Shown: piece after piece, positions 10,850 to 54,087 of the stretch | Numbering within the stretch: the first letter of the stretch is position 1 | Layout of the letters: every line of letters begins with the position of its first letter | IMG/VR virus record: IMGVR_UViG_3300021979_000004 | Location: 64,001 to 128,000 of that record | DNA from: a virus | Taxonomy: Duplodnaviria; Caudoviricetes | Length of the DNA stretch: 64,000 bases | Reading direction: 5' to 3' (one strand) | Notes under the pieces: model-generated | Database searches by the model: none | Told to the model about the DNA's origin: nothing | What the model saw: only the letters and a program-made list of their open reading frames with translations | Translations under genes and position numbers: made by a program

Positions 10850-11482
10850 TTATAGTTTTTGTTCCTTTACTTTCTTATATTTATCATCCTCAAAACTTCC
10901 TTCATATGTTAATTTAATGGGCTTGCGGTAGTAGTAATAGTTTGGATGTTTCAACTTATGCAGTCGTTCTAATCTATCTGCTTCTACTTCCATTGAAATA
11001 AAATGTGCGTCAACTGCACTATTCAAGAAATCAAAATCATCTATGAAAATCTTAACATCAAATGCATAGTTCATTGCCAAATAAAGTTCGCCATCTTTCA
11101 TATATTTTACAGAGCTTCCACCACCCGAGCCAAGATTCACACCAGCAACTGAGTGTGCGCCTCGGTTTCCAAACATACCACTACATGACGATATACGATG
11201 GTTATTGATAATAGTGAACTCTATTCTTCCCTGAAGACCCTTGTAATATAATGGCTTTGAATTATCTCTCATGAAGTTCTCAACACCATCGATAGGGCAG
11301 GAATGGGAGTTGCTAACTTCTTTCTTATATTCGACACTGTACTGTAAGCTGATAATATCTGCGTCAAAGTTTTCTTTTATAGCCTCTGGGAGATACTTGA
11401 AAATATCACCCACTTCTTTTGCATCCTCACACAACTTTATTAGAACAAACCTATCAGGCTTCTTACTTACTTTTGGAAACAT
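10850..11482 (-). CDS. Hypothetical protein with KLKxP motif
   Basis: AGGAGG RBS before MFPKVSKK; RLHKLKHPNYY near the C-terminus. Confidence 0.75.
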   Translation of the reverse strand: MFPKVSKKPDRFVLIKLCEDAKEVGDIFKYLPEAIKENFDADIISLQYSVEYKKEVSNSHSCPIDGVENFMRDNSKPLYYKGLQGRIEFTIINNHRISSCSGMFGNRGAHSVAGVNLGSGGGSSVKYMKDGELYLAMNYAFDVKIFIDDFDFLNSAVDAHFISMEVEADRLERLHKLKHPNYYYYRKPIKLTYEGSFEDDKYKKVKEQKL

Positions 11483-11565
11483 GAAATACCTCCTGAAATA
11501 AGAAAGTATAACATCGGCGTTGGTACGAATCAATAAATACTGTAAACAATAATGGAGTTGAAAGT

Positions 11566-12159
11566 ATGAGTTTAAAAAAATATGTAGAACTTTTAGAATC
11601 TGCATCCCAAAGTGGTAAAAATCAGGAAGACACGATACAGGAAGAATTGTTTCTGGTTTTTCAACAAGAAGTTAAAAAACACTTTGGTGATAAAATAGAA
11701 TCATCTGGTTATGAATTTACGTATAATGGCACTGATAAGAATGGTGGTCTTGTTGATGTTTATTATCTTAATGACGAAAAGAATGATAAAATTTCTATTA
11801 GTTTGAATACCGAAGTTTTATCTATTGAAGATAAAGACTACGATGATGAAGAAGCAACTAACATGGAGAAGAAGAGTAATGTTGTTATTAGTCTTCGATT
11901 TGAAGGAACTCTATCTGTATTCTTTGAAACTGAAGTGGGCGATGTAGAAATAACATCTGTACCGGTCAACGAAGAATATGGATTGGTAGTCAAGAAATAC
12001 AATGATCATCTTGGAGCGTATTGGGATAGTCTACTGGATACAAAGAGTGAACAGGACATTGTAGACGATATGAACGCCTACCATGTTGCCTTAGACACCT
12101 TCTTTAAAGAAGCACAGTATGACATACCAAATTATATAAAGATGTACTACGGCTCTTAA
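11566..12159 (+). CDS. Acidic late hypothetical protein
   Basis: AATAAATA at 11532-11539, GGAG RBS; MSLKKYVELLES start. Confidence 0.7.
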   Translation: MSLKKYVELLESASQSGKNQEDTIQEELFLVFQQEVKKHFGDKIESSGYEFTYNGTDKNGGLVDVYYLNDEKNDKISISLNTEVLSIEDKDYDDEEATNMEKKSNVVISLRFEGTLSVFFETEVGDVEITSVPVNEEYGLVVKKYNDHLGAYWDSLLDTKSEQDIVDDMNAYHVALDTFFKEAQYDIPNYIKMYYGS

Positions 12160-12566
12160 AAGAAGTCTGAGATATATTCTATTTTGTGTTTAGTGGCATC
12201 ATAAACACATGCACTATGTACTAATCCACTGAATTCACAAAGTTTATGCTGTACGTGGAGAACAAACTTAATGATGGGATTTATATTGTAGTTACGAATC
12301 CATACATCCGCGTATAGAGACATTATGTTACGGTCACAGAATAAAACCTCGTGGCCGTTTTCTTCAATCTTTTTAGAAAAGTTTTTTATAAAATGTATAT
12401 CTTCTTCTAGCAAACGTATTTTATAAAGAAAGGACAACTTTTTATTTTCATCAAAAAGATATCCATAACAAAGTTCAAACTTTTCAGGATACGCACCCAC
12501 TTTATTGAGGATGCGCCTGACTAGATATCCATGTAAAAGAAAATTACGGTCTTCAATGCTTTTCAT
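12156..12566 (-). CDS. Hypothetical protein
   Basis: ORF track; probable start MKSIEDRN. Confidence 0.6.
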   Translation of the reverse strand: MKSIEDRNFLLHGYLVRRILNKVGAYPEKFELCYGYLFDENKKLSFLYKIRLLEEDIHFIKNFSKKIEENGHEVLFCDRNIMSLYADVWIRNYNINPIIKFVLHVQHKLCEFSGLVHSACVYDATKHKIEYISDFF

Positions 12567-12963
12567 CAACGCGACCTTTAACACCTTCTTTAAAACACTT
12601 ATCAGCACTACCTTTGATCTTATGGAGATTAAGAGTACGACGAATGTTAGGGTAGTGTTCAAGGTTTAAAACGATTTCAACGTTTTCGATGTAGATACGT
12701 TTACCTTTCAGTTCACCAATACCGAATGCACCTTTGGAACGTGACTTGCATTTAGCTGATGCAATTTCCAGATCAGCATCTTTCCAAAGAGGATACTTTT
12801 CAACATCTTCACAGTAAATTTTCCCAACAATAACAACACTTTTCTTTTCATCTGAATAGATGGATTTGAGGTTTACCTTGACTACATCAACTCCGATAGA
12901 GTCTTTGAAGGCTGTAGGAAGGTCTTCGTTGATAACCGTTTCAATGTTCTTTGCCTCAGACAT
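12553..12963 (-). CDS. Hypothetical protein with KLKxP-like motif
   Basis: TLNLHKIKGS; AAGGGG RBS; TTGCAA-17-TATAAT promoter at 12993-13021. Confidence 0.7.
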   Translation of the reverse strand: MSEAKNIETVINEDLPTAFKDSIGVDVVKVNLKSIYSDEKKSVVIVGKIYCEDVEKYPLWKDADLEIASAKCKSRSKGAFGIGELKGKRIYIENVEIVLNLEHYPNIRRTLNLHKIKGSADKCFKEGVKGRVDEKH

Positions 12964-13033
12964 GAAAAATCCCCTTACGACTATTTCCATCTATTATAGA
13001 GGATACGTAAGGGGATTGCAAGCTATTTTACAA

Positions 13034-14203
13034 TTATGTTGTTAGAGTGAAAAACTCATAAGCGTTTGTATAAGTTTGTATATAGAATCGCTGATCGTCT
13101 ACACGATTTATCACTGTCCCGTTATAGAAATTAGACATTGTTGTATAATATCCAGCATAGTTGGAAGTAACAATAACACCGTCAGTACCGTTGCTATTAT
13201 CAGAAACGTATGCATAGTTTTCATCAACTATTTTCACAACCCTAGCATATATGTTGCTATCTTGTGCAGAGCTTTGATAACCCGGCTTATCAAATATGAT
13301 CATGTGTTGGTCATCTAGCTTAAATGTTTCAAGTATACGGCCTGCATCTTGAAATATTGGCGCAATTGAGCTTACTGTTGGTATAAACTGGCTGTATGGC
13401 CCTGAGTTTATACTGGAACGAGTCGGTAAAGATGATTGTAAAGAATACTGTAAAGTTGCAGTATTATTTTCATAACGTACAATAGCATACTTGTTTTCTA
13501 AAAGCTTACAAACATAAGGAAAATATGACATTGGGTTCGTGTCAAAATTATCCGTTGTAATATCGTATTCAAAAGTTTGTCCATACGAGTAACATGAATT
13601 TCGTAGATATAATTTATCATCAACTATATTTAAAGAATGATTAGAAGAATGATAGTATGGGCTATCAAAAATACTAGTACTATTCATGGTATAGATAGTT
13701 GTTGTTGTTGCTGTACCAGAGCCAAACACTATTTTAATCAAAGAGGCAGAAGTATTTGGGTCTGCCGCTACAATGAATACTGTGTCTTGACCGTATGGCT
13801 GGATACACAAATAATTGTAGTTTGAATTATTCATTTGAGTATTTGATAAATATATTTCATCACTTTTAATAAAGGTATTGTTTACGTCGTCATATTCAAT
13901 AATAAATGCATGGTAAAAGTTTGTGCTATATTGCTTAGCAAAAACAACAATTCTACCATCACCTAATTGCGTTATTTTTATTCCCGTATAGGATCGTCCT
14001 GCATAAAGAACTTCAGAGCATATTTGTGTGGTTGTTGCATTATTATCAAATACATCTGATGTCTCGTACATAACTCCAATTGTTGAATCGTTATCTCTTT
14101 GAGAGACAAGACGGAAAAATCTATTATTTCCTACGTAAGCGCTTGCGTCACCTACCGAGACTCCTCCATAGAAAGGAAAGTCACCTAAATTAATTTCTGC
14201 CAT
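13034..14203 (-). CDS. Beta-propeller-like late/virion accessory protein (paralog of 14216)
   Basis: Shares GNNRF(F/V)RL, LDxQH and VxDENY(A/G)xVSDNS with the neighbour; Asn/Ser/Tyr-rich. Confidence 0.65.
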   Translation of the reverse strand: MAEINLGDFPFYGGVSVGDASAYVGNNRFFRLVSQRDNDSTIGVMYETSDVFDNNATTTQICSEVLYAGRSYTGIKITQLGDGRIVVFAKQYSTNFYHAFIIEYDDVNNTFIKSDEIYLSNTQMNNSNYNYLCIQPYGQDTVFIVAADPNTSASLIKIVFGSGTATTTTIYTMNSTSIFDSPYYHSSNHSLNIVDDKLYLRNSCYSYGQTFEYDITTDNFDTNPMSYFPYVCKLLENKYAIVRYENNTATLQYSLQSSLPTRSSINSGPYSQFIPTVSSIAPIFQDAGRILETFKLDDQHMIIFDKPGYQSSAQDSNIYARVVKIVDENYAYVSDNSNGTDGVIVTSNYAGYYTTMSNFYNGTVINRVDDQRFYIQTYTNAYEFFTLTT

Positions 14204-14215
14204 ATTAAATACCCC

Positions 14216-15370
14216 TTATGATGTACTCATTGTTAAAAATGTAAATTCGTTTGTGTTAGTCTGTAGCCAGAATTGAGTTGGTGAAATCTGGTTGATCATT
14301 CTTCCAGTATGATAATCATTAATATTATTGCCATTCTGAGTTATATTACATACAAAAATTCCGTTTCCTGCTGCTGGTGATCCAGCTTGGCTATTGTCGG
14401 AAACAAAACCATAGTTTTCGTCTATTACTTTTAAGAACAATGCATAGACTGAATCACCATTTTCTGGTCTGTAAAAGTAAATAATATGCTGCCTATCAAG
14501 ACCAATAATGTCACACATTCTGTCATCATCGGTCGAAACACCTAAGTCAACCAATGGAGCGAACAAAACAGAACCCGAAAGACTAGAAGTCTCAAGTCCA
14601 CTAGTTTTTATTTTAAACCGCAAGTATGCACTATTATCGACCATTATACTTAAATACCTGTCAGTATCTAATTTTATAGCGGAATTGTAGTAAGTAAACC
14701 TATTCATAATCGAGGTTTTGTTGACCATATCAACCGCAAATCCTTGATATGAGGCTTGAGAACTTAATGATAAGAAAATATTATCATCAATAACTCTTGT
14801 ATAAACTGAACGTTCTGTAAAATAAGCATCTGCTGAGCTATCGTTTATAACTAAATTTTTTGTTATTGTTCCTGTGGTCAGCCCTTCAAAAATATATGCC
14901 ATGAAAGTACTTCCGCTATTACCAAACACAAGAATAGAATCATCATTATATATCTCAAAACAATATTCATAAAAGTTATATACGTTAGCATCACCTAATG
15001 TTATGTCATAATCTCCAACAATCTCGAATAGTCCATTAACATCATTATACGTGAGAATTATTGCACTATTTAAATAAGTACCTAATCCACTTTGTTTACT
15101 ACCAAGGATTAACAAGTTTCCATTTGATAATTGTTTCATTTTAAAATATCGTATGTAATCGTTATTGATAATTACTTGTTCGTGGACGTTAGTAAGTGTT
15201 TGTGTTCCACTAAAAACATCTGAAGATTCAGAAAGTACTGCAATAGTTCTATCAGGATTGCTTTGTGTCAGTAGCCTAACAAATCTATTGTTTCCTATAT
15301 AAATGCTTTTTTCTTCGGTTGTGGTGCCTTCTCCTGTTGGGTAAGCACCTAAGTTAATTGTATTTGCCAT
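14216..15370 (-). CDS. Beta-propeller-like late/virion accessory protein (paralog of 13034)
   Basis: End-to-end motif similarity to 13034..14203. Confidence 0.65.
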   Translation of the reverse strand: MANTINLGAYPTGEGTTTEEKSIYIGNNRFVRLLTQSNPDRTIAVLSESSDVFSGTQTLTNVHEQVIINNDYIRYFKMKQLSNGNLLILGSKQSGLGTYLNSAIILTYNDVNGLFEIVGDYDITLGDANVYNFYEYCFEIYNDDSILVFGNSGSTFMAYIFEGLTTGTITKNLVINDSSADAYFTERSVYTRVIDDNIFLSLSSQASYQGFAVDMVNKTSIMNRFTYYNSAIKLDTDRYLSIMVDNSAYLRFKIKTSGLETSSLSGSVLFAPLVDLGVSTDDDRMCDIIGLDRQHIIYFYRPENGDSVYALFLKVIDENYGFVSDNSQAGSPAAGNGIFVCNITQNGNNINDYHTGRMINQISPTQFWLQTNTNEFTFLTMSTS

Positions 15371-15383
15371 TATTCAAATCCTA

Positions 15384-16016
15384 TTAGAATGTTACTGTTG
15401 TTGCGTCGTAATATGTGTTTGTTAATATTGTTTCGTCCGTATAGCCTTCAACGTTATCTACTGAATTGGTATTAGATATAACATTTGCAGTGAATGTAGT
15501 CGTACCATCATAGTAAGTGTTATTTAGTAGCGTCTCGTCTGTATAGCCTTCAACGTTATCTATTGAGTTAGTATTAGCTATAACATTTGCAGTGAATGTA
15601 GTCGTACCATCATAGTAAGTGTTACTTTGTACTGGCTCTGTTGTTTCACCAGTAATATTAGTTACAGTAGCTGATGTGTCTTTGCTAGATACATTAAATG
15701 TTAATGTAGCAGCATCGTAGGTGCTGTTGGCTCGGATAGTATCTTCGGTAAATCCAGTAACGTTAGTTACAGTAGCTGACGTGTCTTTGCTAGATACATT
15801 GAATGTTAATGTAGCAGCATCGTAGGTGCTATTAGCTCTGATAGTATCTTCAGTAAATCCGGTGATATCAGTTACAGTAGCTGATGTGTCTTTCGAAGAA
15901 ACAACTATTTTCGACATTAAGTTTTCAGCTTCGAAAATAGTTCTTCCGAGTTGAGGATATCGCGGCCCAAACTTTAGTGTTGGAAGGTGTACACCACCAT
16001 AAAATTTTATACCCAT
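15384..16016 (-). CDS. Thr-rich repeat late protein with shared N-terminal peptide
   Basis: MGIKFYGGVHLPT start like 21066; 34-35 aa repeats. Confidence 0.75.
   Translation of the reverse strand: MGIKFYGGVHLPTLKFGPRYPQLGRTIFEAENLMSKIVVSSKDTSATVTDITGFTEDTIRANSTYDAATLTFNVSSKDTSATVTNVTGFTEDTIRANSTYDAATLTFNVSSKDTSATVTNITGETTEPVQSNTYYDGTTTFTANVIANTNSIDNVEGYTDETLLNNTYYDGTTTFTANVISNTNSVDNVEGYTDETILTNTYYDATTVTF
15387..15902 (-). repeat. Intragenic tandem repeats, 105-nt then 102-nt period (about 5 units)
   Basis: VSSKDTSATVT at aa 39/74/109; NTYYD at aa 132/166/200. Confidence 0.9.
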
Positions 16017-16036
16017 ATTTAAAACCCTTTTAGTTT

Positions 16037-16044
16037 TATTTATA
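16037..16044 (-). promoter_or_regulatory. T4-like late promoter
   Basis: TATAAATA on the minus strand upstream of the 16016 start. Confidence 0.75.
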
Positions 16045-16060
16045 GGTATATAATTTGAGT

Positions 16061-16378
16061 TTACATATAATATTTCTCAACGATTTTCATTAAATCGTCA
16101 AATGTATCTGCATATTTCTCAAATGGTGGCATATCATTATGGCGTTTTTGATTTATGATATAAGTCATTTCTTCTTCGGATCGGTGCCAGCACTTTTCAC
16201 AAGGTATGAAGCCGGTTCCCATAAATGGATTGTCGTCACCTCGTGTGTCCTTAACAATAAGTCCATGAGGGCCATCGCACTCGACATGTTCTTTAATACA
16301 GCACTCTGGATAACCGTATAAAGTACCAAACAACCACCCACGTTCTTTATAGTCCATTTCCTTGAATGTTTTACTCAT
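16061..16378 (-). CDS. Cys-motif hypothetical protein (GYPECC ... GFIPCxxC)
   Basis: Probable metal-binding Cys clusters. Confidence 0.65.
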   Translation of the reverse strand: MSKTFKEMDYKERGWLFGTLYGYPECCIKEHVECDGPHGLIVKDTRGDDNPFMGTGFIPCEKCWHRSEEEMTYIINQKRHNDMPPFEKYADTFDDLMKIVEKYYM

Positions 16379-16923
16379 TAGTATTTACCACCGTTTTTAT
16401 TACTGTATTTCCGGTAAGCTTCCCAAATGTCGTCTGATGGTAAATGTTCATCTTCGTCTTTTACATAATCATCATAGTTATACATCGACTTTATAATTTC
16501 TTCTTTCTGCTTAAGAGCTTCCGTATACTTGTCTTTCATTGCAGTTATCATTTTTACTTTTTCTAAATACTGCCTTTCTTCTTCACGTTGCCTTGCTCGA
16601 CTATCGTCAAAGAACTTTGGATTAGACATCTTCATGAAATTTCTGGCTTTTACAAATGAATCTGAGTCACCACATACTTTCTCAATGGTTGAAACATCTT
16701 CAATATGCTCCACTGACTTCATGATATCTATCATTGTTGAACGATTTATTGCATTTCCTACGTTTGGTCGTACATCGTCTTCAAGGTAACCAAATGCCCC
16801 ATCTACTGATACCTTACTCATTTCAAGACAGGATTTTACTAAATCATTAACTTCATCAATACTGTTTGTTCTTACTAAGGAATTGATAGCCATTCCTAAA
16901 ATCTTTTCACTATCTTTAGCCAC
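16378..16923 (-). CDS. Helical hypothetical protein
   Basis: ORF track; coupled to neighbours. Confidence 0.65.
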   Translation of the reverse strand: MAKDSEKILGMAINSLVRTNSIDEVNDLVKSCLEMSKVSVDGAFGYLEDDVRPNVGNAINRSTMIDIMKSVEHIEDVSTIEKVCGDSDSFVKARNFMKMSNPKFFDDSRARQREEERQYLEKVKMITAMKDKYTEALKQKEEIIKSMYNYDDYVKDEDEHLPSDDIWEAYRKYSNKNGGKY

Positions 16924-17527
16924 GGAATCCTCCTAGCGATTTCATAGTTGGTATATCACATGCTGATAATACCTCAATTCTACACTGATCCGACCTGACT
17001 TTTTCAGGTACGCTTGAAAACAAAATTTCTATTCTCAATAGTTCAACATTAATTTTCCCCGGTGTATCCATACCACCAAGTAATGTACAATTAGGTTTTT
17101 TCAATTTTAAATAATTTAACGTCCTTTTAATATCTTCAGAGTCTTTATTTATAACAAATACAGACTCCAAATCTATAAGATAAAAACCATCGTAAACATC
17201 TTCCAACATAATAAACTTTGCAATAATCTTGTTGCTGATTAATGGACCATAGTTACCTAACCCAAAGCAATAGTGGTTATTCAGAACATAACTTATGTAA
17301 TGCTTTATTAGGTCTTCTTTAATAACCCTTTCAGTGCAATATGCCATTGCATTTTCGAATGTATCTCCCTTATCAATCATATCCTTGCAGATTGCTAGAA
17401 TTGTGTAAATTCTAGTAGATTGTAAAGCTTTACGATATTTCTCAAGTGGTGCAAAATTTATGCCATATTTCAAGTTATTTCTAACATTCTTAGCTATAAC
17501 TTTTTTGAATGTATAAATGTCCATCAC
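16916..17527 (-). CDS. Paralog triplet member with KLKxP motif
   Basis: KRTLNYLKLKKP. Confidence 0.75.
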   Translation of the reverse strand: MMDIYTFKKVIAKNVRNNLKYGINFAPLEKYRKALQSTRIYTILAICKDMIDKGDTFENAMAYCTERVIKEDLIKHYISYVLNNHYCFGLGNYGPLISNKIIAKFIMLEDVYDGFYLIDLESVFVINKDSEDIKRTLNYLKLKKPNCTLLGGMDTPGKINVELLRIEILFSSVPEKVRSDQCRIEVLSACDIPTMKSLGGFRG

Positions 17528-17955
17528 ACGAATACCTTAGTCTTGGGACTTTTGATTTTCATATAGTTTAGTGCTTTCTTCACACAATTGGTATTTCTTA
17601 GTATTTCCCAAATAAGAACACCTTGACTATCTTTGCCCAACGCTGAACTTAGATATATCCCATTAGGGAAGTTCGTGGTTATATCACATGAAATAGCCTT
17701 TTTAATAAGAGCTTCAGCGAAAGTTGGTGTGAATATTAAATGAATATTTTCCTTAACAATCTTTGGTATGTAGCAACCTGTCAAACGATATAGAACCATG
17801 TCAATTACCATATCATTTTCAATGATACGCTTTCGGACTATGTTAAAAACATTGTCTCTAGACTTTCCTTGTGTTTTCCGTACCAAGGAATCCTCTATAA
17901 GGCGCATAGATTGATAGATGTAAAGCATACGATGTTTTGAATTAGATATTTCCAA
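17524..17955 (-). CDS. Paralog triplet member with KLKxP motif
   Basis: KKALNYMKIKSP. Confidence 0.75.
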   Translation of the reverse strand: MEISNSKHRMLYIYQSMRLIEDSLVRKTQGKSRDNVFNIVRKRIIENDMVIDMVLYRLTGCYIPKIVKENIHLIFTPTFAEALIKKAISCDITTNFPNGIYLSSALGKDSQGVLIWEILRNTNCVKKALNYMKIKSPKTKVFV

Positions 17956-17957
17956 TG

Positions 17958-18422
17958 TTATTCTCCCAAATCTAAGTCTTCACGAGGAAACTTTATCTTG
18001 ACGTAGTTTATTGACTTCTTCATAGAATCATGGTCTTTATTGTTTGGATACCAAGTATACCAAGATAGCCCTTGTTGGTTTCTAAACATGGTTCCCAACA
18101 TACACGCAAGATTACATGGGCCTTCTAGATAAGTGCCAGTTTGTTTAAGTAGGCATGTAGGTACTCTCTTTATGAACCTAGAAACAATCTCAGAAGTTAC
18201 AAAGTATGGCATGTTTATTCCAACTTTTCTTGGAATGAACTTGTTTTGGTTAATGTCCGTAAAATAGCAGAAAAATCGTATAAGGTTGAGGTCATCCCCG
18301 ACAAATTCATCGAATGTTTTCTTAGCCACATCAAACCCATAAAGTGACAGATCACTTTCAACAGTTTGTAGAAAGTAATACACTCTTAAGGCGTCAACTT
18401 TTTTCTTTGCTATTTCTTCCAT
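17958..18422 (-). CDS. Paralog triplet member with KLKxP motif
   Basis: KKSINYVKIKFP. Confidence 0.75.
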   Translation of the reverse strand: MEEIAKKKVDALRVYYFLQTVESDLSLYGFDVAKKTFDEFVGDDLNLIRFFCYFTDINQNKFIPRKVGINMPYFVTSEIVSRFIKRVPTCLLKQTGTYLEGPCNLACMLGTMFRNQQGLSWYTWYPNNKDHDSMKKSINYVKIKFPREDLDLGE

Positions 18423-18428
18423 AGGAAG

Positions 18429-18457
18429 ATGTTATCAGGAAATTTTAGGAAGGTCAA
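18429..18457 (-). promoter_or_regulatory. sigma70-type promoter
   Basis: TTGACC-17-TAACAT. Confidence 0.55.
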
Positions 18458-18458
18458 T

Positions 18459-18486
18459 AAAAAAGGATGAGCTTTTGACTCATCCT
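18459..18486 (-). terminator. Rho-independent terminator
   Basis: AGGATGAG/CTCATCCT stem followed by a U-tract on the minus strand. Confidence 0.7.
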
Positions 18487-18638
18487 CTACGTACATGGTA
18501 GAAATTGCTTGGGCGAACAGTTCTTTTTGAATCGAAGATAGTATCTTTGGTAGCCCAATAGCTGATCCCGACAGATGCAAATCCTAAAGCAACTATAAGC
18601 CCAACAACTCCAACGTATAGAAGTGCTGCGCTAAACAT
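18480..18638 (-). CDS. 52-aa single-pass membrane protein (not in ORF track)
   Basis: AGGAG RBS; MFSAALLYVGVVGLIVALGFASVGISYW...; CATAAATA-like element upstream. Confidence 0.7.
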   Translation of the reverse strand: MFSAALLYVGVVGLIVALGFASVGISYWATKDTIFDSKRTVRPSNFYHVRRG

Positions 18639-18686
18639 AAATAATCTCCTAAATAGCCTAATTATTTATGTTCAAAATACGCTATT

Positions 18687-19250
18687 TTAAGCAGCTTGTG
18701 AATCAGTATTTGCACTTACAGGCATCAGTGAAAGATAGTCCACTATTTCATAGATAAAGCATAGGAAGCTCACCTTATCGATATAGACTCTTTCCATATC
18801 ATCCTCTCTCTCAACACCACTGCGAATGATTATTGGAAGGTCTAGTATATCTTGAATACCATAGTCGAGAATATTTTCCTCAACGTCGTTACCAATTCCA
18901 GAGTATACACTGATATTGGTATACGTTTCAGTACGGCACACACTCTCTTCATTGTAATAAAGCTCATGAATATATTCAAACGATAGGTAATTCAAACGAT
19001 GATTTCTGCCTAGTATATTTGAAGATTCCGTCATATTGATAAGCTCTTCTATAAAGCTATGAACCTTTTGTAGTTCAGGATACGCCTTAAGAGTCATTAT
19101 CAAGTCACGTACTGAATAAGTACGTTCCAGTTCAATACTCTCCTGAAGATACTGAATAATTGACGCATCCATGATTGGTGTGTTGATTATTTCTGGTTCT
19201 TCATAAGTGAATGCAATATTACCTTTCTTGTATAGAGATATATGTTCCAT
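18687..19250 (-). CDS. Acidic hypothetical protein
   Basis: AAGGA RBS; ORF track. Confidence 0.7.
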   Translation of the reverse strand: MEHISLYKKGNIAFTYEEPEIINTPIMDASIIQYLQESIELERTYSVRDLIMTLKAYPELQKVHSFIEELINMTESSNILGRNHRLNYLSFEYIHELYYNEESVCRTETYTNISVYSGIGNDVEENILDYGIQDILDLPIIIRSGVEREDDMERVYIDKVSFLCFIYEIVDYLSLMPVSANTDSQAA

Positions 19251-19277
19251 ACCATGTTCCTTCTATTATAATAGTAA

Positions 19278-19421
19278 TTATTTAAAGATTTTGAACCACC
19301 AACGATTAGAATACTTTTCGTAGAATGAATCGCTTACTGTGATGATTCTATAACAAAATAGGAGCTTGGTCGTGCAAAGACCAGCGAAGAGAATGAGTAG
19401 TGATAGGATGAGAATTGCCAT
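19278..19421 (-). CDS. 47-aa membrane protein (not in ORF track)
   Basis: GGAGG RBS; MAILILSLLILFAGLC...RWWFKIFK. Confidence 0.65.
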   Translation of the reverse strand: MAILILSLLILFAGLCTTKLLFCYRIITVSDSFYEKYSNRWWFKIFK

Positions 19422-19487
19422 AGGAACCTCCCAATATATAACGTAAGTAAAAACACTAATATACTAAGATAATATATCAGTAACTAG

Positions 19488-19516
19488 AAAAAAGCAAGGG
19501 AGCGTCAAGCTCCCTT
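19488..19516 (-). terminator. Rho-independent terminator after nadV
   Basis: AAGGGAGC/GCTCCCTT stem plus U-tract. Confidence 0.75.
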
Positions 19517-19518
19517 TA

Positions 19519-20883
19519 TTACGCGGCTAGTTCTCTTATTTCATCGAAGGTTTGACGACGCTTAATCACACCATCTTCATACACTACTTCAAGTAGGTTG
19601 GAATCACCAGCAAAACTCTCTGGGACTGTCTTGTAGCCTTCATCCACATCTGGGACTAGTGCTAACCTACCTTTCTTAGAAGTCTTACCAGCGTCGGTCA
19701 CAGGGTCTTTAAAGACGTTTCGACCCTCGCCATTGACTTCGATGTAAGAGCATTTCATAGCGAACTTCTGAGTGTCACGGTTGTGGTCTTGTAGAAGTTT
19801 ACCACCCATACCGAATACAACATTCTCAACAGACCATCCGTTAGTTTTTAGGTTCTCGCAGATTCTACGGATCATTTCGATATCGATACCGTCACCCTGT
19901 AGAACACGAACCTTATCATTTAGAACTTTGTATCCTTTGGTATTCTTATAAGAACCAAACTTCTCATCTAGAGCGGTGATAACATCATAAACAACTTCAA
20001 TCGGATTGCCACTATCAGGACGAACTACTAACACACCGTCACGCTTTAGAATTTTATCTTTAAGCTTCTCACCAAAGATGTTGCTAACTGCATTGTAAAT
20101 GTCATAGCTATCTGCAACGATAGATAGAATACCAGTTGGGTTTTCATCAATTAGTTTCTCGTATGCAGCCGCTTCACCATCTTTACCGTGGGAGGTGATT
20201 GTGCTGTGTTCTGCCGCAACAACACTGTAAGCGCACACGTTAGAATCGTAGTAGCGCATAGCTGTTAGAATACCTTCCATAGTATCTGTACCGCTGAAGT
20301 TGATAAGGTGCGCTGCACCACCAATACCAGCAGTGGTATCAGAAGAAGCACCACGATAGCCGAAATCATGTAGTTTGAATGGTAGGCTATCGGTATTATC
20401 AGATGTTAGTTCTAGATATTTTTTAATAATTTTCTTGCATTCTTTACTGTAAGTTGCTACAGTAGATGCATACCATACGGCAGAAAGTAGACGTGGCTCT
20501 AAGAAAGATGGTAGCCAGTAAAATTCTGGTAGGGTATTTTCAATAACAGCAAGTACGTTTTTGACAGGTAGTACCATACCTTCTTTTACAGCACTGATCT
20601 TAATAGGTAGGTAGCCTAACTCAACGAGTGCTTTAGCACCTTCGTAGTTAAATGGTACGCCGTGTAGCTCAGTGAATGTTTTAGCTTCTTCAACATCCGC
20701 CATGGTTGGAAAATTGTCATTGATATCTTGAATAGCTTTCTGTAGGCCGAAGAATAATACTTCGTCAAACTTGCCGCCACGGCTTTCAATGTAAGAATAT
20801 ACTTTAGTAGTACCAGTTGGGTACTGGCTGAAGTGGGATAGTTTGTAGGAATCTGTTTTTAGAAAAAAGTTATTATAGTTCAT
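19519..20883 (-). CDS. nadV: Nicotinamide phosphoribosyltransferase (NAMPT)
   Basis: TDSYK, LHDFGYRG, AAEHST, VRPDSG, QGDG, GMGGKLLQ and KKGRL motifs. Confidence 0.95.
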   Translation of the reverse strand: MNYNNFFLKTDSYKLSHFSQYPTGTTKVYSYIESRGGKFDEVLFFGLQKAIQDINDNFPTMADVEEAKTFTELHGVPFNYEGAKALVELGYLPIKISAVKEGMVLPVKNVLAVIENTLPEFYWLPSFLEPRLLSAVWYASTVATYSKECKKIIKKYLELTSDNTDSLPFKLHDFGYRGASSDTTAGIGGAAHLINFSGTDTMEGILTAMRYYDSNVCAYSVVAAEHSTITSHGKDGEAAAYEKLIDENPTGILSIVADSYDIYNAVSNIFGEKLKDKILKRDGVLVVRPDSGNPIEVVYDVITALDEKFGSYKNTKGYKVLNDKVRVLQGDGIDIEMIRRICENLKTNGWSVENVVFGMGGKLLQDHNRDTQKFAMKCSYIEVNGEGRNVFKDPVTDAGKTSKKGRLALVPDVDEGYKTVPESFAGDSNLLEVVYEDGVIKRRQTFDEIRELAA

Positions 20884-28849: not shown

Positions 28850-29020
28850 TTAACCATTCAGTTTGTTCTTATCCATGATTTCATCAACAAGGCCAAACGC
28901 TAGAGCTTCTTCTGCAACCATGTAATTGTCACGGTCACATGCAGCGTGAACTTCCTCTAGTGTCTTTCCAGTACAATCAGCATAGATTTCTTCTAGCCTT
29001 TGACGTGTACGTAGAATTAT
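28850..29020 (-). pseudogene. clpP: Orphan 3' fragment of a second clpP allele
   Basis: [38 protein letters not shown] aligns with [38 protein letters not shown]. Confidence 0.85.
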
Positions 29021-38961: not shown

Positions 38962-39454
38962 TATTTAGGGAATGTGTGAAATCTGACATTATTAATAGTC
39001 TTCCACCAAAGGCTTCAGACAAAAACTTATACATGCTACGATTAGAAATCTTAACACGGTTTAGTGCATCTTTGTTTACATTAAAAACAATTCTGGTCAC
39101 ATAGTATTCATCAAAGTGAATCTGATGCGTTACAGGGCATGAAGGATAACCAACCAATTCTGACGAAGATAATCCTAACTTAAAATCTTTCTTATCAATC
39201 TCTTGCTCAAGATAACATTGAAAGTTCACTAGGGCTTGATGCTCAAAATTAGAAAGATCATCCAGTGTATCATATCCCATACGCTTAACTTCGTTCGCAG
39301 ATGCACATAGAAAAAGAACTGAATGTTGGGCACTACGACTGTTTTTAGGTTTTACAATCTCAGGTTTACAATCCATATCATTCACCGTTAATAAGTTCAT
39401 CCAGAATATCTTCCAACCATTTTTCACGCTCTTGATATTCCTTTTCATGATCAC
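38951..39454 (-). CDS. KLKxP-motif family hypothetical protein
   Basis: RIVFNVNKDALNRVKISNRSMY; likely start MDCKPE. Confidence 0.7.
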   Translation of the reverse strand: MIMKRNIKSVKNGWKIFWMNLLTVNDMDCKPEIVKPKNSRSAQHSVLFLCASANEVKRMGYDTLDDLSNFEHQALVNFQCYLEQEIDKKDFKLGLSSSELVGYPSCPVTHQIHFDEYYVTRIVFNVNKDALNRVKISNRSMYKFLSEAFGGRLLIMSDFTHSLNNGT

Positions 39455-39827: not shown

Positions 39828-40910
39828 TCAGTACTCAGGAAATTCCCTTGAAATGTAATTACTACCATACTTCCAAAGCTGATCTACCGTTCGGGTCATG
39901 ATCAGGCATCCATGACCTCTTAGGTTGACTACAACAACCTCTTCATCCGGTGATGGGTAAAGCTCTACCACCTCATCAAACTCTTCTAGAAAGCCACATG
40001 GAACCTTGCTGGAAGTCATCTTAGCACCTTCGATGTATACATGCCCATGCACCATGTAATTAATGTTTGGATAATAATTGAACAACTTAACCTGAATCGG
40101 TGTGTCTACTGAAGGTTTACGATCACCATAGTAAAGAACTGACCCATTGAATTCAGGACTCACTTCTACAAACCCATCTGTTTCGATTAGTTTCTTATCG
40201 ATATTACGCTGTGTGACAAAGATACGATCTTGCTGTCTCTCAGCAGGAAACCCAAACATACAACGTGTACTTGCGTTACCCAATAGACGGTTAGGGTTAA
40301 CAGCGTTTACGTACTTAGTGAATTCATTAGCTGAATATTTAACAAACTCAATAAACTCTGGATCGATAGTGAACTCACGTTCTTCATCGATTTTTTTACT
40401 AGGCACACGAGTCATTGAGAACAATTGATTAATACGATTTAAGATAGTATCTGCCAATTCTTCGATTGAACAGGTATCAACATACAAGTTACCAAGAGGA
40501 TCAAGCAGTTTAAACTTATAAAGGTTCTTGGGCTTGGTAATCATGATTCCAAGGTTACTTTTTGATTTAAGTAGTCGGCCAATTACATCAGACTCTTTGT
40601 ATTCTTTTTCAACCACACGCTTAGAGCTAATAAGCAATGCTCTAGGTGCTTCTTCTTTAATTCTCGGAAGAATCTTATCTTCATCATTAGAAATATTTGG
40701 CATCCAGATAATAACATCGTAACGACTATACTTAAGGTCATCAGTAAGGATACTTAATGCACCACCATTGACCCAATCACATTCAAATCCTGAATGCTCA
40801 TCCATGTACTCAGTGAATTTTAAAATAACACTAGATACATTAGAGTCTTTATATTCATTTGGATCATCAAGGTGTTCAAATGTACCACCAACAATTAGCA
40901 TTTTTTTCAT
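39828..40910 (-). CDS. Two-domain protein with class II aldolase/adducin-like C-terminal domain
   Basis: PSVDTPIQ, YMVHGHVY, VNLRGHGCLI Zn-site motifs. Confidence 0.65.
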   Translation of the reverse strand: MKKMLIVGGTFEHLDDPNEYKDSNVSSVILKFTEYMDEHSGFECDWVNGGALSILTDDLKYSRYDVIIWMPNISNDEDKILPRIKEEAPRALLISSKRVVEKEYKESDVIGRLLKSKSNLGIMITKPKNLYKFKLLDPLGNLYVDTCSIEELADTILNRINQLFSMTRVPSKKIDEEREFTIDPEFIEFVKYSANEFTKYVNAVNPNRLLGNASTRCMFGFPAERQQDRIFVTQRNIDKKLIETDGFVEVSPEFNGSVLYYGDRKPSVDTPIQVKLFNYYPNINYMVHGHVYIEGAKMTSSKVPCGFLEEFDEVVELYPSPDEEVVVVNLRGHGCLIMTRTVDQLWKYGSNYISREFPEY

Positions 40911-41626
40911 ACATTATCTCCAAATCGTTTGCGATATTCTCTCATAATTTTACTGTGTCGGTTTTTATTGACATGATACCGCTCTAGGTTTATACCGTTG
41001 AGCTTGTCGTACATTGTACAAACAATGTAATCCATATGTCCATCATAAACTTTGTCAACAAACACTTTAGAAGGAATTGATTTGTTTAATCTGATTTTTT
41101 TGAAATCATAAGCCCTTCCTTCAGTAGTCTCAGTGACAACCGGACAGGATACTGAATAAGTATAGCGTGTGCCTTTTGTTACCTCACGCTTGTAAGCTAC
41201 CTTACTTGCAATTTTATTTTTATCTAAATCCCCAACCAAGCGGGTATAGATATGCATGATTCTTGGACTAACTTCGACAAGATTACCATGATAGCAATTC
41301 TTAGAATTACCATCTACATGTAAAATATTTCCAGTAGGCCAATCTCCATAAACCAAAAGCCAGATCAAACGACTTCGTAGCATTTTATATTGCTTACCAT
41401 TGAGTTTAAAATCTACTGTAAGGTATTCGTATGTTGCACCAGTTGGGGTAGTCATAACTTGTGAAGTTAGGGGTAAAGGACGATCAAAATACTTCTTACC
41501 TATAGCACTTACGGAGTATGGCGTGTTTTTATTATAAAACAAACTACCAGTTCCATCGTAATAATAATGCGCTAAACAAAATTGTTTCAGTCGTTCATTG
41601 TCTTCTTTATTCCTTAGTCGGGGCAT
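40907..41626 (-). CDS. Degenerate HNH endonuclease-like protein
   Basis: RSRLIWLLVYGDWPTGNILHVDGNSKNCYHGNL resembles HRLxW...IDHIDGNxxNN. Confidence 0.6.
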   Translation of the reverse strand: MPRLRNKEDNERLKQFCLAHYYYDGTGSLFYNKNTPYSVSAIGKKYFDRPLPLTSQVMTTPTGATYEYLTVDFKLNGKQYKMLRSRLIWLLVYGDWPTGNILHVDGNSKNCYHGNLVEVSPRIMHIYTRLVGDLDKNKIASKVAYKREVTKGTRYTYSVSCPVVTETTEGRAYDFKKIRLNKSIPSKVFVDKVYDGHMDYIVCTMYDKLNGINLERYHVNKNRHSKIMREYRKRFGDNV

Positions 41627-42123
41627 TATTCTATCCTCATAAGTTTATCAATCGTATATCCAGTAATCTTATGATACACATTTGGTATTTTAATTTTTAG
41701 ATAATTAAGATCATGTTTATTAATGGCAACCTTATAGCGAACGATTACCATATAAGAGTTCATGTTAACTTCTGTCTGTACTCGGTTTTCTAGAAAAGGA
41801 ATACCTTTCTTACAATAAGGCTTTATTACATCAATCATGCCATTTAGATGACCTCGGACAAATTCATCCAATTTATTAAAATGCTCATCCCTTCCTGTAT
41901 TATATGTTTCAGTCATGAACTGGTTATGAAAGGTGTACATTGTGCTTGTAACATGAATCGCAATACTAGTCCGATCTACCATCCAATCCTTTATATAAGA
42001 ATTAAATTCCTCACGGCTATGATTGGACATCAAATCATCTACGTTAAGATTTTCGATATCACCGGATTCTAGCTGTTGCCACGCTCTTTTAATTCTTTCT
42101 CTTTCTGAACTATTCTCCGACAT
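41626..42123 (-). CDS. KLKxP-motif family hypothetical protein
   Basis: DLNYLKIKIPNVY. Confidence 0.75.
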   Translation of the reverse strand: MSENSSERERIKRAWQQLESGDIENLNVDDLMSNHSREEFNSYIKDWMVDRTSIAIHVTSTMYTFHNQFMTETYNTGRDEHFNKLDEFVRGHLNGMIDVIKPYCKKGIPFLENRVQTEVNMNSYMVIVRYKVAINKHDLNYLKIKIPNVYHKITGYTIDKLMRIE

Positions 42124-42478
42124 TACAAAAAACCTTTTGATTGTATTGACCCGAAACTGTATCTAGATATTGTTCCATGCTTTTTAGTTTCCAAAAATTT
42201 GCTTCACGGCTTGATATGGATAAACTGACTCTTACTAACGTATGATTATCATCAACAATACCATCACCGTAAAACAGGTTATTTGAGGCATACTTCGCGA
42301 ATGATGAGAGATTTCTAACATCACGCTTGTAAATCCTAGACATTGATCTTTGCGCACGTACCTTTACACCATAAAACTTTAAAAATGATTTTTCAACACC
42401 ATCACAGGCTTTATTGATGATCATGTTACCATCTTTAGAAACAAGGTCTACGCGTACAATTACCTTAAACTCTTTCAT
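42110..42478 (-). CDS. KLKxP-motif family hypothetical protein
   Basis: EANFWKLKSMEQY. Confidence 0.7.
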   Translation of the reverse strand: MKEFKVIVRVDLVSKDGNMIINKACDGVEKSFLKFYGVKVRAQRSMSRIYKRDVRNLSSFAKYASNNLFYGDGIVDDNHTLVRVSLSISSREANFWKLKSMEQYLDTVSGQYNQKVFCNVGE

Positions 42479-43542: not shown

Positions 43543-43962
43543 TTAAGTCAAAAATCTTGTATGTTTTAACTTAAAATGATTTTTCGTGTTATTGTTAGTG
43601 AATTCCAAATTTATCATAAAGTAAATATTTTTCACATTCATAGATGATCTTAACTGTTCAAGCAAATCATCAAAGTCTTCTTCAAAGTTATAAATTTTCT
43701 CAACCCAAGCATTATTTGATGTCATACTATCCGCAAGGGTTTCTACTAGAAAGCCACTATAGATATCCTCACGCTTAAACAACTCCATTGGTAGAAATTG
43801 AGTCATTGCAAACGTTGGCTCAACTGAAAGGTTTAGATTATTATCTTTAATAATTTGTTCCAACTCATAGGCATCAAAAAACAACATCAAGAAGTTTTTA
43901 TCTTCTTTCTCCCAGAGTTTAGTATACATAATACTATTTGTTATCTCATGATTATAAAGCAT
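43543..43962 (-). CDS. KLKxP-motif family hypothetical protein
   Basis: Ends INLEFTNNNTKNHFKLKHTRFLT. Confidence 0.7.
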   Translation of the reverse strand: MLYNHEITNSIMYTKLWEKEDKNFLMLFFDAYELEQIIKDNNLNLSVEPTFAMTQFLPMELFKREDIYSGFLVETLADSMTSNNAWVEKIYNFEEDFDDLLEQLRSSMNVKNIYFMINLEFTNNNTKNHFKLKHTRFLT

Positions 43963-44684: not shown

Positions 44685-45059
44685 TCACCAACCCTTTACT
44701 TTATATTCTTTAAGCAATTTATTTTTATCTTCTAGTGCTTCAACTGATGGATCATCACTGAGAAATATCTTTTCGATGTGGACAAAGTTACAAAAGTCAG
44801 GTTCCTTCAAGTTAAAGTAATTAAGTATCTTGCTAACATTTTTCTGTAATTCATTTTGAGGAACACGTATACCTATAACCGACGTAAGAATTTTTTTCTT
44901 ATCAACAAAAGGGTAAAATTCTAGGATAGAAAATTCGTTATAAATCATACCATTATTTTTCACATACTTACGTAGACAGTGCTTTGCATCGTTTACTAAG
45001 CGTATCAGAATAAGGGTGCTTTTATCATCAGACATTAGAATACCTCTAAAAATTACCAT
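44685..45059 (-). CDS. KLKxP-motif family hypothetical protein
   Basis: KILNYFNLKEPDF. Confidence 0.7.
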   Translation of the reverse strand: MVIFRGILMSDDKSTLILIRLVNDAKHCLRKYVKNNGMIYNEFSILEFYPFVDKKKILTSVIGIRVPQNELQKNVSKILNYFNLKEPDFCNFVHIEKIFLSDDPSVEALEDKNKLLKEYKVKGW

Positions 45060-51695: not shown

Positions 51696-52325
51696 TTAGC
51701 GATTTATGATTGTTCTCTCAACATTTATCGCTAGATCGGAGAAGCTACCCGTATTTTCGATTTCAGATTCATAGTTGCAGGACAACCATGCCCATTCAGA
51801 TTCATGTACTTCCATATCATCCAAAGTAACAATAGCATCTTGATCACCATAAGCCGCTTTGATACCAATGTTTTCCCACTCAGGTGTAAAGCGTCGTACA
51901 CGATATATAGATGAGTTTTCAAACTTTTCTATATAACGATGTTCATTTGGGAAGCGGATATCAGTTACCACTACATTCCCCTTTATATTATTTATTTTAT
52001 TTACTAGAGCATATACCCAGATATTCTCATCGAAATGTTTGCGAAATAAATCTGTACCGATCTTGGTCATTGCTAATCTAGGTGTGAAATTAGGAATACC
52101 AAGTTTTTCAGCCCACCAGTGATCCACTTCATCACGCCATTTACGTGACTCGGGGGTATGACCGTTTATCATTTCCATGTCCCAACCAAAAATCACACAA
52201 AGACATTGCTTTAGTGTTTCGGCATATGATAGAATAGAGTAATCGTATTCAGATAGGATATTAGCAACAGTGTCTTTACCACTGCCTTTGAAGCCCATAA
52301 GGCCGACAATTTTTTTATTATTCAT
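51696..52325 (-). CDS. Deoxynucleoside monophosphate kinase (T4 gp1-like)
   Basis: GFKGSGKDT P-loop, PRLAMTKIGTD, DIRFPNE, HESE. Confidence 0.92.
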   Translation of the reverse strand: MNNKKIVGLMGFKGSGKDTVANILSEYDYSILSYAETLKQCLCVIFGWDMEMINGHTPESRKWRDEVDHWWAEKLGIPNFTPRLAMTKIGTDLFRKHFDENIWVYALVNKINNIKGNVVVTDIRFPNEHRYIEKFENSSIYRVRRFTPEWENIGIKAAYGDQDAIVTLDDMEVHESEWAWLSCNYESEIENTGSFSDLAINVERTIINR

Positions 52326-52388
52326 TGTTGTTATTCTCCAAAATTAAAACTTTATCATAAAACCTTTATCCGTCAAGGGAGACAGTAC

Positions 52389-52949
52389 ATGACACCGGGA
52401 TATATTATCGTAAAATACCCATCAGGAAATTCAGTAGTTAATATCTATCTGAAAGACAGTGCTATGGTACAGAATGTTTGTGATTTCTTTGCAGAGCATT
52501 TTGGTCAGTCTGTTAAAATGCCACGAGACTTATTTCATGATCTTTGTAGTGATCGATATAAGGGAACTCTCAGTCCAGAAGAACGACCAAAAACCATGCA
52601 AGATTATATGAATTTTACTATTCCCGAATCAGAACGTTATGCTGAATATTATCGTAACGATTACGATGAAGATTTCATCATCGTGCGTAATTCATTTGAT
52701 AATATTAATTCTCTGGCGGCTAACATTGTTCATAAATTGTTTAGTGAATATAATAATGTTCTCAATGGTGATGCGGTAAGAATTGTACCTGAAGTTGATA
52801 TTAAGCTTGTGCCTTATGTTTATACTGTAGAAGTTTTCAGGGATCAAGATCGTCTCGAACGCCCATACCTCACGGCAAAGTCATCTGATGGTATTGAGTT
52901 TGCAGGGTTTGTATCTAAAATTAAAGTTGTTGAGGAAGACGATGAGTAA
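52389..52949 (+). CDS. Hypothetical protein
   Basis: GGGAG RBS; ORF track. Confidence 0.7.
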   Translation: MTPGYIIVKYPSGNSVVNIYLKDSAMVQNVCDFFAEHFGQSVKMPRDLFHDLCSDRYKGTLSPEERPKTMQDYMNFTIPESERYAEYYRNDYDEDFIIVRNSFDNINSLAANIVHKLFSEYNNVLNGDAVRIVPEVDIKLVPYVYTVEVFRDQDRLERPYLTAKSSDGIEFAGFVSKIKVVEEDDE

Positions 52950-54087
52950 AATTACCCCTACATTCAATTCCAAGATGTCTCAAAGAATTGATAAAATGGT
53001 TCGGTGTCTCGATCCTAAAAACCAAACATCGGTTGTTTCTGGTGAATACCGCGCAATTTTATTAGAAATTGGTAGTGCTATGCTGTCGGGAACTGACGTT
53101 GACCCCAGAGTTAAAAATTTTGTTCAAGACCATATGACGTACTTTCGTAGACATGTACCAGAAATGCACTACATTCTTCTTCTGATTCTTTCTCTTCGTG
53201 ATGATGATATTTCCAAAAATATCACAGATACACATATTCAGGATGCAGCAACGGAAGCTTTTATTTCATTATCTAAAAGACATAGCCTGATTCTGTCAAC
53301 CAAGCTTCGAGATATTTTATTACAGCAATATCAAGCTACCTTGAGTTACCTGACACATACCGTTTTATCATTTACCATTGATATCAAAGATGCATTTCCA
53401 ATATCAAGCATTGATAATTCAGAAAGGTTTATAATGATCAATAAAGCAAAAGTATTCACAGTTAACGCTTTTAAATATATGATCGAAAACAACATTCCTT
53501 ACCTGTTGAATATTCTAGATAATATTCCGATAACATGGGAAAGTGCACCTATACATCATTCCATGTTCGAACAAAAAAATAATAACGAAGACATAAGCAA
53601 ATATCAGAAAAAATTTAATTACAAGAATGATTGTAAAAACTATTCAACGGTCAACCCTAATTGTGTTGAGGCTGTGTCTCATAGAACTACATCATACAAC
53701 GATATGATTGAAGAAATTAACAAGTACGTCACAACTGAGTATGCCGTTATTGATATTCATTCTATGTTTATGATTCAAAAGCATATTGATTCATGCTCTA
53801 CCGATAAGCCCACGACACACCAAACACTGTCATGCTCATACCATGTTGGACTTTCCATCGTGTATTATTATGAAGTGCTTGGAGTAGATATATCAGAAAT
53901 GCTTACAGAAGAATATATTAAATTTATATTCAAGATGAATGGCAATACCAAGAATGATGCTAACGACAACTTTATTACAGTACACAACTGTATCGCGTAT
54001 CTGGATAGGAAGTTTGGGTATGATCAGGAAGTAATGAAGGCTTTAAACAAATATCGTAACTACTTGAAACTAGCAAAATTAATTTAA
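52942..54087 (+). CDS. Helical hypothetical protein ending in a KL motif
   Basis: GAGG RBS before MSKITP; ends YRNYLKLAKLI. Confidence 0.7.
   Translation: MSKITPTFNSKMSQRIDKMVRCLDPKNQTSVVSGEYRAILLEIGSAMLSGTDVDPRVKNFVQDHMTYFRRHVPEMHYILLLILSLRDDDISKNITDTHIQDAATEAFISLSKRHSLILSTKLRDILLQQYQATLSYLTHTVLSFTIDIKDAFPISSIDNSERFIMINKAKVFTVNAFKYMIENNIPYLLNILDNIPITWESAPIHHSMFEQKNNNEDISKYQKKFNYKNDCKNYSTVNPNCVEAVSHRTTSYNDMIEEINKYVTTEYAVIDIHSMFMIQKHIDSCSTDKPTTHQTLSCSYHVGLSIVYYYEVLGVDISEMLTEEYIKFIFKMNGNTKNDANDNFITVHNCIAYLDRKFGYDQEVMKALNKYRNYLKLAKLI

Follow-up and report, generated by a model that had tools for sequence, protein, structure and literature searches.

A recurrent C-terminal motif in a giant marine phage as the probable signature of one tandemly amplified family of small, fast-diverging proteins

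Why should the same short peptide recur near the C-termini of phage proteins that otherwise have little in common? This question is raised by a 64,000-nucleotide stretch of DNA, hereafter the window, which comprises bases 64001-128000 of a 217,982-bp linear viral contig (IMG/VR record IMGVR_UViG_3300021979_000004; CheckV completeness 73%). A preliminary description listed the peptide at 13 sites between positions 10,850 and 54,087 of the window and argued that its presence on helical and alpha/beta proteins alike speaks for a portable signal rather than for a single paralogous domain. Our analysis confirms that the motif, LN-x-Φ-K-Φ-K-x-P-x-x-Y (Φ, hydrophobic), is real, and we consider it probable that it mainly marks a single lineage-specific family of small early proteins, which has been amplified in tandem, diverges fast and has a putative shared binding surface.

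Using a simple gene set of 385 open reading frames (ORFs) of the contig, we counted 26 matches to the core pattern N-x-Φ-K-[LIM]-K, compared with 1.7 +/- 1.3 in residue shuffles (maximum 6), and 16 matches to Φ-K-[LIM]-K-x-P, compared with 0.8. After curation, 42 of the 385 predicted proteins (~11%) bear the signature; 28 of these carriers lie inside the window, all 28 on the minus strand, and together with two weak ones they account for the total of about 30 genes given in the preliminary description. The position near C-termini is borne out as well, as the core pattern starts at 65% of the protein length or beyond in 23 of 26 matches, and the distance from motif to C-terminus is 10-66 residues across the 42 curated carriers. 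The sizes of the carriers, previously given as 84-380 aa, are in fact 84-344 aa. The motif is missing, as had been observed, from the recognisable structural genes and enzymes of the window, which include a 957-aa tail sheath, an intein-bearing fragment of the large terminase (TerL), NAMPT, an ATP-dependent DNA ligase and ClpP.

Strings of the K-L-K type are bound to recur in a proteome rich in Lys, Asn, Leu and Ile, and chance and composition might thus account for the motif. Two observations fit this explanation, namely that enrichment is no more than about twofold for the loosest pattern, Φ-K-[LIM]-K (61 matches vs 28 expected), and that scores are low at the weakest sites, 12553, 26346 and 52942. 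However, the fuller patterns are enriched fifteen- to twentyfold, the motif is biased towards the C-terminus, it co-occurs with an upstream strand, and it is kept in orthologues. In leave-one-out profile scoring, 12 of the 13 listed sites carry the motif, with scores of 2.5-18.3 bits, whereas 52942 (NYLKLAK) scores -3.3 bits. The null distribution obtained from shuffled proteins has its 95th, 99th and 99.9th percentiles at 1.9, 3.8 and 7.2 bits; all 12 supported sites lie above the first of these and 10 above the second, the weakest being 12553 (2.5 bits) and 26346 (3.0 bits). Scores from a leave-one-out profile of the longer module described below span 2-28 bits. For the set as a whole, chance is refuted by shuffling and by the null score distributions and is highly improbable as an explanation; it likely explains site 52942 only.

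We then considered the level at which the motif is constrained, since an element acting in DNA or RNA (a promoter, terminator or recombination site) could lie inside the 3' ends of genes and merely translate to a similar peptide. The AT-richness of the motif (AAx, TTx and AAA codons) and its location 30-200 nucleotides upstream of the next gene in tightly packed operons would suit such an element. The codons, however, do not: synonymous codons are used near-evenly (Asn, AAC 18 and AAT 17; first Lys, AAA 23 and AAG 17), CCT, CCA and CCC for Pro and TAT and TAC for Tyr are all in use, and all 42 of the eighteen-base motif cores differ. Information by codon position 1, 2 and 3 is 0.42, 0.70 and 0.21 bits, the third position being the poorest, and a reversed-pattern control gave 1 match vs 12. 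Because synonymous codons are near-even and the information resides in codon positions 1 and 2, the constraint sits on the protein; the codon analysis rules out the DNA-level explanation, the probability of which is practically nil. Conservation among orthologues was measured for 20 carriers against up to two relatives each from four partial relatives (L015, L019, L001 and L002), giving 36 pairwise alignments of 32-83% identity. The identity of the six-residue core is 0.79 compared with ~0.5 along the rest of the proteins, with per-position values of 0.92 for N, 0.94 and 0.81 for the two K, 0.75 for P and 0.78 for Y, and the hydrophobic positions -1, +2, +4 and +13 are likewise conserved. Codon use and orthologue conservation together indicate purifying selection at the protein level, a point on which the earlier interpretation holds.

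Comparison of the carriers with one another shows that, for most of them, the conserved unit exceeds the 12-residue motif. A hydrophobic strand-like stretch ending 6-10 residues upstream is found in 90% of carriers vs 47% of random-position controls (p = 3e-10). When three-sequence orthologue alignments for 16 carriers were compared using hhalign, nearly all top pairs aligned in register at the motif over 20-67 columns, with probabilities of up to 88%, and the alignments extend ~50 residues upstream of it. The genes are also clustered: there are 19 adjacent carrier pairs, where 4.3 would be expected and 5000 shuffles gave 12 at most. One array of 17 head-to-tail genes, on the minus strand at 647-7541, takes in about half of the carriers; it belongs to the same motif family and lies outside the 10,850-54,087 range. 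The remainder are scattered in small groups. The order of the 17 genes is kept in two relatives (L015 and L019), and, with cross-paralogue matches set aside, the array genes have a mean identity of 58% to their counterparts in the Tara relative, compared with ~80% for flanking genes. The argument for a portable tag against a paralogous domain is therefore unsupported, because conservation in most carriers extends beyond the motif, and tandem clustering adds to this; the part of that argument that stands is the presence of the motif on a helical body of 344 aa, described below.

The contig is part of a giant marine myovirus related to Salicola phage SCTP-2, with a genome of probably ~460 kb, because matching proteins, near-identical or ~80% identical, are held by Tara Oceans and other marine contigs of 401-462 kb. 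The 440-kb SCTP-2 is the closest cultured relative (sheath identity 54.5%), and PA5oct-like and Rak2-like jumbo phages rank next. In SCTP-2, the element recurs in gp340-345, six paralogues whose mutual homology spans the entire protein (E as low as 4e-19), and gp348 probably carries it too. These six proteins make up phrog_16508, a family of unknown function. In a search with a profile made from them, window carriers come out on top (E = 3.7e-5 to 4.4e-3); the alignments keep the motif in register and cover the C-terminal 33-72 residues only, mostly 40-60. The match of gp340-343 to phrog_16508 (E ~1e-55) takes in positions 1-153; that of window proteins is weak and confined to positions 88-142 of 153, in the C-terminal third (gene 4183-4482, E = 0.0087; gene 647-1021, E = 0.017), and most carriers have no match to this family. 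The two sets are alike in a C-terminal strand followed by s-Q-H-D-L-N-R-L-K-L-x-D-x-x-F/Y, in their tandem layout and in belonging to the same phage clade. They differ at the N-terminus, where window carriers lack the MT-x-x-R-R and Y-W-x-x-V blocks found in SCTP-2, in the second Lys, which is mostly substituted in SCTP-2, and in number, with ~42 carriers in 218 kb here vs ~7-10 seen in SCTP-2. A six-frame profile search of SCTP-2 returned one match; this search undercounts, since it missed half of the known carriers of our own contig. A nucleotide search against cultured phages gave no match, a protein search of two carriers against cultured phages gave nothing significant, a scan of IMG/VR using the family of carrier 41626 found no relatives, and a literature search on SCTP-2 found no description of the motif family. 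Searches of 29 carriers against Pfam and 24 against PHROGs yielded only weak matches to phrog_16508 and phrog_12523.

To see where the motif would lie in a fold, we used an AlphaFold2 model of carrier 1018-1323, built with five orthologues (mean predicted local distance difference test score, pLDDT, 66; final 11 residues unmodelled). The model comprises a strand, a helix, four strands and two helices (residues 70-79 and 81-89). The motif, residues 73-84, runs along the first of these two helices, across the break and into the second, with Pro +7 at the predicted break, and residues 61-80 are the best-predicted part (pLDDT 77-82). That the motif helix is among the last elements of the fold, rather than its being a terminal tag, would explain the C-terminal bias of the motif. 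The top matches of the model in Foldseek and VIA-align are nearly all dimeric ferredoxin-like proteins (ABM, Dabb, EthD, MLMI, OAC), with weak scores (Foldseek E = 0.01-0.07; template-modelling score ~0.55). Neighbours of this type are also found for the ESM Atlas models of 1018-1347 and of carrier 42110-42478, which is unrelated to it in sequence (ACT, ABM and SIMPL for the latter, whose model has a pLDDT of only 0.47). This is moderate evidence that the small carriers share a ferredoxin-like alpha+beta fold class, as distinct from membership of a named family. The strand-helix-strand-strand-helix order over ~100 residues, predicted in two carriers, resembles that of ABM, Dabb and EthD proteins such as SnoaB (3kg0), LsrG (2gff) and At3g17210 (1q4r); in contrast, the carriers have only 4-10% sequence identity to them and the final strand is not clearly present. 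The resemblance is one of fold class only and does not imply the catalytic residues, and 29 carriers searched against Pfam (E up to 0.05-1) gave no ABM, Dabb or EthD match. A search of a viral structure library with the small-carrier model returned only weak matches to uncharacterised proteins. As a separate observation, carrier 1018-1347 contains a second motif-like string, Y-Y-Y-K-I-K-K-P-D-H, at the first predicted strand-to-helix transition, which hints at an internal repeat of strand-helix units; no such second string was seen in other carriers.

The coincidence of the motif with the best-predicted part of this model, together with the conserved hydrophobic positions -1, +2, +4 and +13 and the Pro +7 at a helix break, would also be expected if conservation were purely structural, i.e., if the motif stabilised or nucleated the fold by Asn helix capping, a Pro kink and Tyr packing, with no shared partner. 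Two Lys of the solvent-exposed type would then have little reason to be 81-94% conserved in orthologues that are otherwise ~50% identical, or to be retained across ~40 paralogues devoid of other similarity. Moreover, a 344-aa carrier and its orthologues keep these residues unchanged on an unstructured tail, where there is no fold to stabilise. On this evidence, a purely structural role is unlikely.

The 344-aa protein is encoded at 30651-31685 on the minus strand and bears the motif LNYMKIKKGIDS (LNYMKIKK) at 30669-30704. It was searched against a library of 1.84 billion proteins; in its five relatives, at 30-97% identity, Y322, N329, K332 and K334 are invariant, and N, K and K are unchanged even in those at 30-42% identity. 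The AlphaFold2 model, built from six sequences (mean pLDDT 72), has an all-helical core of residues 40-265, mostly at pLDDT 75-95, followed by a hairpin, and fold searches with it matched no known fold. The statement that the motif occurs on helical as well as alpha/beta proteins thus holds at the level of this model. Because the all-helical core holds the motif on a tail, the module can sit on a different body, and this protein is the clearest instance. A 304-aa protein outside the window (contig 146299-147213) has the motif 10 residues from its end, without the upstream strand. Both large proteins bear just the helix part, at the extreme C-terminus, which may reflect fusion of the module to another body. 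The motif may therefore be portable to a limited degree, in the few large carriers, but a portable signal does not fit most of the others.

These large carriers bear directly on the possibility that the motif is a portable signal of 10-15 residues, read by one trans-acting machine (such as a protease, a modifying enzyme or machinery for packaging or localisation) that gives unrelated proteins a common fate. Such a signal would account for carriers devoid of BLAST-level similarity, for fixed residues that are polar (N, K, K, Y) and resemble a recognition site rather than a hydrophobic core, for the invariant motif on the low-confidence tail of an all-helical protein, and for a motif 10-16 residues from the end in four proteins; the phage also encodes its own ClpP in the same window. 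On the other hand, the conserved unit reaches well past the motif, as seen from the upstream strand and the hhalign alignments, the carriers are tandem duplicates whose SCTP-2 counterparts are full-length paralogues, and the 1018-1323 model places the motif inside a folded domain, in the helix predicted with most confidence. Known terminal signals, such as ssrA-type/ClpX C-terminal degrons and the N-terminal capsid-targeting sequence of T4 internal proteins, are very terminal, accessible, unstructured and transplantable. The motif resembles them as a short peptide shared by otherwise dissimilar proteins of a phage that encodes ClpP, but it stands at a variable distance of 10-66 residues from the C-terminus, usually as part of an element predicted to be folded, and is flanked by a longer stretch of conserved sequence. 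We regard a portable signal as quite unlikely. Decidedly doubtful is the bolder proposal that the helix motif is read by one trans-acting machine and has moved between unrelated bodies, i.e., the small alpha+beta proteins and the all-helical 344-aa and 304-aa proteins. If it were true, ~45 early proteins would share one fate, possibly timed clearance by a ClpP-based protease or recruitment to a host or phage hub.

As regards expression, a sigma-70-like promoter, TTGACA-17-TATATT (11/12 consensus match), stands at 7513-7541 on the minus strand at the head of the 17-gene array and is the best promoter-like match in positions 1-20000 of the window. The TTG listed as the first codon of the leading array gene probably belongs to the -35 hexamer of this promoter, and the L015 orthologue of the gene is shorter (133 aa). 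Upstream of three carriers at 16916-18422, a terminator-like hairpin (18488-18462) is followed by a promoter-like TTGACC-17-TAACAT (18457-18429). TerL, the sheath and 19 further genes have a late motif of the T4 type, TATAAATA, upstream of them. From these sequence features, the carriers are probably expressed early. Around the head of the array, the spacer at 7513-7572 is very short and holds divergent promoters, with only a few bases between the late-type TATAAATA site (7546-7553) for the plus-strand terminase fragment and the sigma-70-like site for the minus-strand array.

In the most probable account, that of one tandemly amplified family, the genes would have multiplied by tandem duplication and then diverged rapidly, a typical carrier having ~100-200 aa. 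What survives would be a C-terminal block of ~45-60 residues, consisting of a hydrophobic beta-strand, a short loop and the helix-kink-helix L-N-x-Φ-K-Φ-K-x-P-x-x-Y, which in small members would belong to a compact ferredoxin-like alpha+beta domain. The fixed polar residues (Asn, two Lys and Tyr) would form a putative shared binding surface for a common partner or ligand, and the variable remainder of each protein would provide differing specificities, a pattern to be expected of a battery of host-takeover or counter-defence proteins. The shared surface is favoured because the invariant positions are polar and do not vary in the 344-aa protein either, although its tail is unstructured.

Several observations weigh against this account. 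No pair of carriers in the genome reaches BLASTP E < 1e-3. The N-terminal halves lie outside all detectable similarity, profile alignments span about half of a protein at most, and neither a shared N-terminal strand in the small carriers (p = 0.07) nor a final strand after the motif (p = 0.08) is significant. The predicted structures of small members number only two and are of low to moderate confidence; the structural Z scores of the 1018-1323 model (up to 6.5, the best ABM and Dabb alignments having a root-mean-square deviation of 3.2-3.5 Å over 78-83 residues at Z 6.5) are below 8, where they may reflect a mere common arrangement. In the 344-aa protein, the motif lies on a C-terminal tail (residues 297-344, all with pLDDT <50), in which the pLDDT falls below 40. 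As for early expression, promoter-like sites in the region are no more numerous than expected by chance, and the late motif stands upstream of 1 of 41 carriers vs 21 of 344 other genes, a contrast that is not significant (p = 0.49). As a separate result, the stretches that follow the motif have no acidic or basic bias.

The other carriers between 10,850 and 54,087, all encoded on the minus strand, illustrate how the motif varies. The 251-aa protein at 10850-11605 has the motif ERLHKLKHPNYY (RLHKLKHPNYY) at 10934-10969 (6.8 bits); its orthologue in the Tara relative L015 is 61% identical, and its residues 82-165 give a weak match to phrog_12523. The gene at 12553-12990, listed with 145 aa, likely starts at Met10, giving 136 aa. 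Its motif, LNLHKIKG at 12598-12633 (2.5 bits), is preceded by the strand IYIENVEIVLNL, and four orthologues, at 58-82% identity, all keep the block IRRTLNLHKIKG unchanged. Three consecutive carriers follow: 16916-17527 (203 aa) with LNYLKLKKPNCT (LNYLKLKKP) at 17084-17119 (17.2 bits), 17524-17955 (143 aa) with LNYMKIKSPKTK (LNYMKIKSP) at 17536-17571, 14 residues from the C-terminus (16.2 bits), and 17958-18422 (154 aa) with INYVKIKFPRED (INYVKIKFP) at 17976-18011 (9.2 bits). They are adjoined by a weak carrier absent from the earlier list, the 181-aa product of 16378-16923, in which RNFMKMSNPKFF is located mid-protein (8.8 bits with the family profile). The smallest carrier, at 26346-26600 (84 aa), is weak: its motif, MGRFKLKNLHKH (GRFKLKN, with Gly for Asn) at 26361-26396, scores 3.0 bits, about the 98th percentile of the null, and the upstream strand reads ALLEVHVIIL.

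Further along, the highest score among the supported sites (18.3 bits) is that of the 167-aa product of 38951-39454, with LNRVKISNRSMY (LNRVKISN) at 39029-39064, which is also matched by the SCTP-2 gp340-345 profile (E = 0.0013). The 165-aa product of 41626-42123 has LNYLKIKIPNVY at 41674-41709 (17.9 bits); in its family, with orthologues down to 44% identity, the most conserved block is AINKHDLNY-KIK-P--YHK, around the motif. Directly downstream of this gene, an HNH endonuclease gene is found at 40907-41626 (Pfam HNH_3, E = 2e-8), and the same position is also occupied by such a gene in the relative L003. In the 122-aa product of 42110-42478, the motif is ANFWKLKSMEQY (NFWKLKS) at 42167-42202, and orthologues have NYWKLKS and NRWKLKN in its place. 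The 139-aa protein encoded at 43543-43962 carries KNHFKLKHTRFL (NHFKLKH) at 43549-43584, 12 residues from the C-terminus (8.3 bits). At 44685-45059 (124 aa), the first Lys of LNYFNLKEPDFC (LNYFNLKEPDF, at 44790-44825; 5.3 bits) is replaced by Asn, while the orthologue in L002 reads LNYFKLKEPEY, with the canonical Lys. The site listed as 52942 belongs to a 399-aa protein encoded at 52888-54087 on the plus strand, which ends in NYLKLAKLI and has no Pfam or PHROG match. It was rejected as a carrier, having neither the upstream strand nor the second Lys and being located on the plus strand beside the tail-sheath gene.

Other features of the surrounding DNA were noted in passing. The full-length ClpP gene (Pfam CLP_protease, E = 5e-78) occupies positions 29539-30135 of the minus strand, and a 75-aa ORF at 28850-29077, also on the minus strand, duplicates only the final ~50 residues of ClpP. 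Between the two pieces, on the opposite strand, is a 127-aa ORF (29129-29512) with no family match, and the arrangement at 28850-30135 looks like a duplicated gene end left by the insertion of a mobile gene. A YqeY-like (GatB/YqeY) protein encoded at 27806-28243 (Pfam YqeY, E = 4e-21) adjoins this region. The contig also contains a separate family of seven paralogues of 226-349 aa (contig 13029-20684, 57542-59259 and 101136-101930, the last being window 37136-37930), several of which begin with leaders of the M-K-I-K-H-L-L-E type; one such start, MNYMKIKHLL (contig 19827), resembles the motif by chance. Five further paralogues of 452-607 aa, with 33-41% mutual identity and no Pfam match, are encoded at window 56679-60186 and contig 179637-192555.

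For two jumbo phages, G and 121Q, Hua et al. (2017, PMC5646251) described tandem arrays comprising over 30 similar genes. As in those phages, a giant genome appears here to have been enlarged by tandem duplication of small genes of unknown function, and the head-to-tail clustering is comparable (19 adjacent pairs vs 4.3). The protein family and the motif are unrelated to theirs, in contrast, and the copies are far more diverged, the carriers not being recognisably similar over most of their length. The family is new and undescribed, and its kind is already known from other jumbo phages. Giant phages spend large parts of their genomes on small, fast-evolving early genes of unknown function. The conserved N, K, K and Y offer clear targets for finding a common partner, and the conservation of the signature in gp340-345 of the cultured SCTP-2 provides an experimental entry point. 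If the partner is indeed shared, the family would consist of adaptors that join one hub to many targets, and would be a model for how giant phages diversify their host-takeover or counter-defence functions.

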